Shown: positions 37,476 to 38,366 of the stretch, piece after piece | How positions within the stretch are numbered: the first letter of the stretch is position 1 | How the letters are laid out: every line of letters begins with the position of its first letter | Assembly: GCF_044324875.1 (NCBI RefSeq) | Contig: NZ_CP172185.1 | Direction: 5' to 3' (one strand) | DNA: 64,000 nt | Source: Escherichia coli | GTDB taxonomy: Bacteria; Pseudomonadota; Gammaproteobacteria; Enterobacterales; Enterobacteriaceae | Position numbers and translations under genes: made by a program | The notes under the pieces: generated by a model | What the model was told of the DNA's origin: nothing | What the model saw: only the letters and a program-made list of their open reading frames with translations | The model's database searches: none

Positions 37476-38366
37476 GTGCGATATGACAAAGAATTAACGG
37501 AGAATGTGATGATCAGGCAGAAGATTCTACAGCAGCTCCTGGAGTGGATTGAGTGCAATCTTGAGCACCCTATTTCAATCGAAGATATCGCACAGAAATC
37601 TGGCTACAGCAGGCGCAACATCCAGCTTCTGTTCCGAAATTTCATGCATGTGCCTTTAGGAGAATACATTCGCAAACGAAGGCTTTGTCGTGCCGCCATT
37701 CTTGTCCGACTCACCGCGAAATCTATGCTTGATATTGCACTCTCTTTGCATTTTGACTCACAGCAGTCATTCAGCCGCGAATTTAAAAAGTTATTCGGCT
37801 GCTCTCCCCGTGAATACCGCCACCGTGATTATTGGAATCTCGCAAATATCTTCCCTTCTTTTTTAATACGTCAACAGCAAAAGACGGAGTGTAGATTAGT
37901 CAACTTTCCTGAGACACCTATTTTTGGCAATTCATTTAAATATGATATTGAAGTGTCGAATAAATCACCGGATGAAGAAGTCAAACTGTGACGTCATCAT
38001 TTAGCCAGATGTATGAAGAATTTTAAGACGGATATCTATTTCGTCTCCACGTTCGAACCGTCAACAAAATCGGTCGATTTGCTCACAGTTGAAACTTTTG
38101 CCGGTACGGTATGCAAACAAACCGATTCAGAGATGTCGAAAGAGTGGACAATTAACCGAGGACTGTATGCCTCTTTCCGCTATGAAGGTGAGTGGGAGCA
38201 CTACCCTGAATGGGCGCGAAACCTCTATCTGATGGAATTACCCGCCAGGGGGTTAGCCAGAGTGAACGGCAGTGATATTGAGCGGTTTTATTACAATGAA
38301 GATTTCGTAGAAAAGGATAGCAATGATGTTGTTTGCGAAATTTTTATCCCCGTTCGTCCGGTTTAG
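37476..38366 (+). pseudogene. ykgA: Rob-like AraC regulator (HTH domain plus GyrI-like domain) interrupted by one in-frame TGA at 37989-37991
   Basis: ORFs 37476-37991 and 38013-38366 are in the same frame, separated only by the TGA plus 7 sense codons. Confidence 0.65.

Follow-up and report, generated by a model that had tools for sequence, protein, structure and literature searches.

What has become of a transcriptional regulator whose frame is broken by a single in-frame stop is the question raised by ykgA in the window, the stretch of 64,000 nucleotides of Escherichia coli analysed here (contig NZ_CP172185.1). The reading frame of this Rob-like AraC-family regulator runs on the plus strand from 37509 to 38366, 285 codons followed by the natural stop, and is interrupted at codon 161 by a premature TGA (37989–37991, plus strand). 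The original prediction had seen in this arrangement either a nonsense pseudogene or a naturally split regulator that produces an HTH-only protein. The evidence gathered here points to the former. With a probability of about 0.86, ykgA in the window is a young pseudogene, originated by one C-to-T transition at 37989 that changed the CGA of Arg161 into TGA, with the regulator effectively lost.

The TGA ends the upstream ORF and a second ORF resumes in the same frame, as had been claimed: the ORFs 37476–37991 and 38013–38366 lie in one frame with seven sense codons (R H H L A R C) between them, and the downstream one, from 38013, comprises 117 codons. The size proposed for the intact protein, about 295 amino acids, has to be corrected to 285 from ATG 37509, since the upstream GTG is an unlikely start. 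ATG 37509 is the annotated start in all RefSeq relatives, which places the stop at codon 161 of an intact protein of 285 amino acids, and the interval 37509–38366 is collinear with an annotated 858-bp CDS in NZ_CP076709.1, NZ_CP028662.1 and NZ_CP025573.1. This ATG is favoured over GTG 37476 because it is preceded, 6 nt upstream, by a GGAG Shine-Dalgarno sequence read from the sequence (37499–37502, plus strand); no Shine-Dalgarno sequence was found upstream of GTG 37476. A start at that GTG, which would give forms of 171 or 296 amino acids, was rejected on this ground and on the use of ATG 37509 by the RefSeq relatives. The exact 171-amino-acid form was not found in a collection of 15 billion proteins, in which the 160-amino-acid form is present. 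The truncated-product ORF (37509–37991, plus strand) encodes residues 1–160 followed by the TGA, and this product holds the complete two-HTH DNA-binding domain, the linker, the first two strands of the GyrI-like domain and about six residues of its helix. The residual in-frame ORF (38013–38366, plus strand) encodes residues 169–285, 117 amino acids that make up the distal three quarters of the GyrI-like domain. A terminator-like hairpin with a 14-pair stem and a T-rich tail (GTTTATT) is located at 38421–38453 on the plus strand, between the convergent ykgA and fdeC.

When the frame was translated through the TGA, Pfam HTH_18 was found at residues 27–106 (E 2e-19) and HTH_AraC at residues 69–105 (E 3e-11), with the AraC-type double HTH wholly upstream of the stop. 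The GyrI-like domain (PF06445) occupies residues 127–283 in the ancestral frame (E 2e-12) and spans model positions 2–155 of 155; in the window allele it is cut at residue 161, and no product contains the whole domain. Over its full length the read-through protein can be aligned with the Rob structures 7vwy and 1d5y (E 6e-39). Given these domains and this end-to-end alignment, the two ORFs belong to a single gene and have not come together by chance. The gene order, rclA-rclB-rclC, an aldo-keto reductase gene on the minus strand, ykgA and the convergent fdeC/eaeH, is that of the ykgA locus of E. coli. The identification as a Rob-like ykgA was therefore correct in its HTH_18 plus GyrI-like architecture, its alignment with Rob and its locus. 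YkgA resembles Rob in that architecture and in size (285 versus 289 amino acids), and Rob shares the arginine at the position mutated in YkgA. Against the NCBIfam RobA equivalog model NF012228, YkgA scored 196.8 bits, below the cut-off of 380, and against NF011701 it scored 175 bits, the cut-off being 426. Judging from these scores YkgA is a paralogue of Rob and not Rob itself, and in PMC2064960, where it is described as paralogous to MarA, SoxS and Rob, no function or targets had yet been assigned to it. Residues 1–106 align with residues 2–106 of SoxS (E 5e-27) and also with the MarA and RamA structures.

The origin of the stop was traced by a megablast search of 37400–38450 against 5,426 complete E. 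coli genomes. The gene was matched in 5,049 of them, with a coverage of at least 80% in 4,608. The best match, E. coli O158:H23 strain CFIAFB20140388 (NZ_CP076709.1), carries an intact 285-amino-acid CDS, and the only difference from the window in 1,051 bp is a C at the position of 37989, which restores CGA (Arg161). A comparison with other strains for a sense codon at this position had been suggested, and CGA is present at codon 161 in all six allele groups sampled, namely O158:H23, 119, E-1246, BL21-type, EC-129 and K-12-type, the last five being 93.6–97.9% identical. More widely, 28 full-length homologues with 31–94% identity were aligned, drawn from Escherichia, Salmonella, Klebsiella, Citrobacter, Enterobacter, Buttiauxella and Edwardsiella, with Rob included, and at least 90% of the aligned sequences share Arg161. 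In the intact alleles the dN/dS ratio is 0.13–0.17 overall and 0.06–0.20 per half where computable, two of the HTH-half comparisons having either no synonymous or no non-synonymous differences. As the ratio is low in both halves, the fused two-domain protein is the selected form. Over 36290–40400, about 4.1 kb, the window shows three SNPs relative to the O158:H23 strain CFIAFB20140388, one of them that at 37989, while the flanks are about 2% divergent; this near-identity amid divergent flanks indicates a probable recombination mosaic at the locus. The block spans the aldo-keto reductase gene, ykgA and the 3' part of fdeC. No further damage to the ykgA frame was found downstream of the TGA. The mutation is recent, since only three SNPs separate the shared block of about 4.1 kb and the frame is otherwise undecayed. 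A Dcm hotspot was considered as its cause and discarded, the mutated C being located in CTGCGACG and not in CCWGG.

The stop is rare. A first search with a 57-mer had left it possible that TGA carriers with a nearby SNP existed, and this was resolved with 30-mers centred on the T at 37989, with which only TGA carriers can seed a match. The version present in the window, CTG TGA, was found in none of the 5,426 complete E. coli genomes, and a variant 30-mer with the synonymous CTA at codon 160 in exactly two, those of strains 33-6 (NZ_CP050031.1) and 58-3 (NZ_CP050036.1). These are clonal broiler-chicken strains from Sichuan, with identical ykgA and matching annotated features over a 7-kb locus; in both of them rclC is also frameshifted. 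Their ykgA (locus 3049–3900) differs from the intact BL21-type allele only by C481T, and PGAP labels it as a pseudogene ("internal stop") in both strains. The mutation is identical to that of the window (C481T, CGA to TGA at codon 161), whereas the allele that carries it is not, being about 94% identical, of the 283-amino-acid type and with CTA at codon 160. Since the background is different the event is independent and, on the comparison of these alleles, R161* has at least two separate origins, on distinct backgrounds. There are six CGA codons in ykgA and 27 sites at which a transition creates a stop, codon 161 being among both; with that many sites and thousands of genomes, a repeat hit at this codon is unremarkable. 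In JGI/ENA metagenome contigs a 39-mer with TGA gave no match, while the same 39-mer with CGA gave 62. Hence the nonsense pseudogene that had been offered as one alternative agrees with what was found: the sole difference from the nearest allele is a T in place of C, the codon is CGA elsewhere, and the label assigned by PGAP in two strains is the same.

The other alternative, that of a regulator naturally split to yield an HTH-only protein, did not hold. The split form of this allele is absent from the 5,426 genomes, the break falls in the middle of a helix, and the downstream ORF has no ribosome-binding site. All full-length homologues, from Salmonella, Klebsiella, Citrobacter, Enterobacter and other genera, are fused two-domain proteins. 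Nor does the stop separate the HTH domain from the GyrI-like one: the first 34 residues of the latter precede it. In an AlphaFold2 model obtained from the 28-sequence alignment (mean pLDDT 91), the C-terminal domain is composed of strands 128–133 and 136–148, helix 155–172, strands 176–184 and 191–200, and so on. Residue 161 occupies the middle of helix 155–172, and the downstream ORF starts at residue 169, in the last turn of that helix; the 117-amino-acid product would be devoid of strands 128–133 and 136–148 and of most of the helix. According to the model, the GyrI-like domain is incomplete in both fragments. No Shine-Dalgarno-like GGAG, GAGG or AGGA was found in CGTCATCATTTAGCCAGATGT, the 21 nt preceding ATG 38013, nor any promoter-like site on the plus strand upstream of this ORF. 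The proposal of an independent 117-amino-acid gene was rejected for want of a Shine-Dalgarno sequence, of a promoter-like site and of a complete fold, and the residual ORF 38013–38366 is probably not translated on its own.

For the protein, the predicted consequence is as follows. Translation from ATG 37509 would terminate at codon 161, and the resulting product of 160 amino acids would keep the SoxS/MarA-like double HTH and lose a foldable GyrI-like effector domain. In Rob, as reported in PMC9178005 citing Griffith et al. 2009, the C-terminal domain mediates ligand-dependent activation ("sequestration-dispersal") and protects the N-terminal domain from Lon and ClpYQ. By analogy with Rob, the YkgA fragment would be unstable and unresponsive to ligand, and we infer that the regulator is effectively lost. 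R161* should be, on this analogy, a null or strongly hypomorphic allele. A fragment with an intact DNA-binding domain could retain some activity, and traces of full-length R161W may be made through the leaky UGA-C. The downstream ORF of 117 codons would be a leftover of the old frame and not a gene. No polar effect is expected, because ykgA is monocistronic, a terminator-like hairpin follows it and fdeC runs toward it from the other side.

Lesions of ykgA are not limited to this one. E156* was found in two Logan assemblies, a 1-nt insertion after nt 375 of the gene in GCA_902810155.1, and 1-nt deletions at nt 295 and nt 430 in other samples. From 57 complete metagenomic copies, 44 are intact (283 or 285 amino acids), and the lesions present in this set include Q9*, W13*, a stop at codon 103, other 1-nt deletions and a 26-nt deletion. 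The codon-103 stop was seen in two high-coverage gut-metagenome contigs, ERZ1034915 NODE-53 and ERZ1034669 NODE-2; because it lies inside the HTH, loss of ykgA is not confined to truncations of the C-terminal domain. By megablast, 377 of the 5,426 complete genomes have no ykgA match and about 440 only a partial one. The K-12-type record annotates ykgA as a pseudogene without its C terminus, and in K-12 an IS3 is located at the eaeH-ykgA junction (PMC11148124). K-12 ykgA (b0300) is the same gene at the same locus, and there too the C-terminal GyrI-like domain was hit and the HTH kept. However, in K-12 the 3' end was lost at about codon 217 by an IS3-associated rearrangement that also truncated eaeH/fdeC, whereas in the window the nonsense substitution at codon 161 is the only damage to ykgA and fdeC is whole. 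With R161*, the window adds a further lesion to those by which E. coli has lost ykgA again and again.

Other readings of the TGA have to be weighed against that of a young pseudogene. It could be an error of sequencing or assembly in a strain that really has CGA and an intact ykgA, and it does differ from the nearest allele by a single base, with no complete RefSeq genome carrying it on the allele of the window. The Logan assembly of run ERR1512459, however, contains a contig identical to the window over 6,483 bp (34509–40991), TGA included, and the exact products of 160 and 117 amino acids are recorded together in it, although the window may derive from the same reads; gene callers split ykgA into two genes in this Logan assembly. 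A second Logan contig encodes the same 160-amino-acid product. Moreover, base substitutions away from homopolymers, such as this one, are not what errors typically look like, and two finished genomes of another lineage carry the identical mutation. A sequencing error at 37989 is thus unlikely, and we would give it very little credence. Even less credence is due to a recoded UGA, read as selenocysteine or subject to programmed readthrough or reinitiation, that would yield the full-length protein or two functional parts. The TGA is followed here by C, and UGA-C is reportedly (Poole et al. 1995) the weakest termination signal in E. coli, so the context would be leaky; an in-frame ATG is found 21 nt downstream of the TGA. 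Against recoding, a 66-nt segment that spans the UGA and the bases after it folds with z = -1.0, and 36 of 200 shuffled sequences fold as well; no Rfam family was detected in 37200–38600, and both the ancestral codon and the homologues specify Arg at this position instead of Cys or Sec. Were tRNA-Trp to read the UGA, tryptophan would stand where arginine is almost invariant. Reinitiation at ATG 38013 would proceed without a Shine-Dalgarno sequence and give a protein that, starting at residue 169, is short of two strands and most of a helix. Selenocysteine and other forms of recoding were consequently rejected, as the fold is like that of the shuffles, there is no SECIS-like structure and no Rfam family, and the homologues have Arg.

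A different matter is whether the truncation could be adaptive, with YkgA(1–160) acting as a free-standing, ligand-independent activator of the SoxS/MarA type, and R161* selected and not merely tolerated. The region that aligns with SoxS, MarA and RamA, residues 1–106, belongs to proteins which work without a C-terminal domain, and the fragment predicted here contains the whole homologous region. In addition, R161* is independent on two allele backgrounds, and E156*, the frameshifts at codons 125–144 and the IS3 at about codon 217 also spare the HTH. On the other hand, Q9*, W13*, the frameshifts at about codons 57 and 99 and the codon-103 stop destroy it; since the lesions strike both the HTH and the C-terminal parts, there is no bias toward keeping the DNA-binding domain. 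The allele is also very rare, and two hits among 27 transition-type nonsense sites in thousands of genomes are unremarkable. SoxS, MarA and RamA evolved as free-standing domains with their own regulation, whereas the YkgA fragment ends in 54 residues left over from the linker and the broken GyrI-like domain, and comes from a family in which, according to PMC9178005, the C-terminal domain stabilises the N-terminal one. For Rob that source reports the C-terminal domain as necessary for stability against Lon/ClpYQ and for activity. An adaptive truncation is therefore improbable. In its strongest version R161* would be a recurrent gain of function, in which the HTH, freed from the GyrI-like sensor, becomes a constitutive activator of a stress regulon selected in at least two E. 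coli lineages; the repeat hit at codon 161 is the one observation in its favour, with nothing beyond it, and this version is slightly more improbable still. The reading preferred is that of a pseudogene: ykgA in the window is an ordinary recent nonsense pseudogene of a known Rob paralogue and not a new kind of regulator.

The surroundings of ykgA show further changes. The neighbouring fdeC/eaeH (38487–42740, minus strand, 1,417 amino acids) is intact, and so is the aldo-keto reductase gene (36392–37276, minus strand, 289 amino acids), which is divergent from ykgA. The latter gene is also intact in strains with the 285-amino-acid allele of ykgA, and in those with the 283-amino-acid type (K-12-, BL21- and EC-129-type loci) it is reduced to a 129-bp remnant (locus 2679–2807). 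A complete IS1 of 768 bp with canonical terminal inverted repeats (28161–28928; transposase ORF 28176–28679, minus strand) links a truncated yahE with ykgH, also truncated, without target-site duplication. Compared with NZ_CP076709.1, about 21 kb is absent at this IS1, with hyxBAR, ipbA, betABIT, ehaA, pdeL and yahBCD. The arrangement resembles an adjacent deletion mediated by IS1, with loss of the choline-to-glycine-betaine pathway. On the other side of ykgA, an IS21-family element of 2,639 bp (45493–48131; istA 46364–48010 and istB 45592–46590, both on the minus strand) interrupts a LysR-family regulator gene; NZ_CP076709.1 has this gene intact, and its remaining ORF here is 48011–48817. Within 10 kb of ykgA, another regulator gene has thus been disrupted. 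A stretch of about 2 kb (48995–51079) without counterpart in NZ_CP076709.1 holds another LysR-family regulator gene (48942–49931, minus strand) and an alpha/beta-hydrolase gene (50025–50945, plus strand). The NADH:flavin oxidoreductase gene next to it (51118–52260, 380 amino acids) is full length, and at its site NZ_CP076709.1 has only a partial pseudogene annotated.

For annotation, the finding means that ykgA should be recorded here as one pseudogene with an internal stop and not as two genes, one HTH and one GyrI-like. If YkgA regulates its aldo-keto reductase neighbour, the pair would be decaying in different orders according to the lineage. Moreover, ykgA is under purifying selection in most E. 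coli and yet has been repeatedly lost, a pattern that fits a regulator needed only in certain niches.
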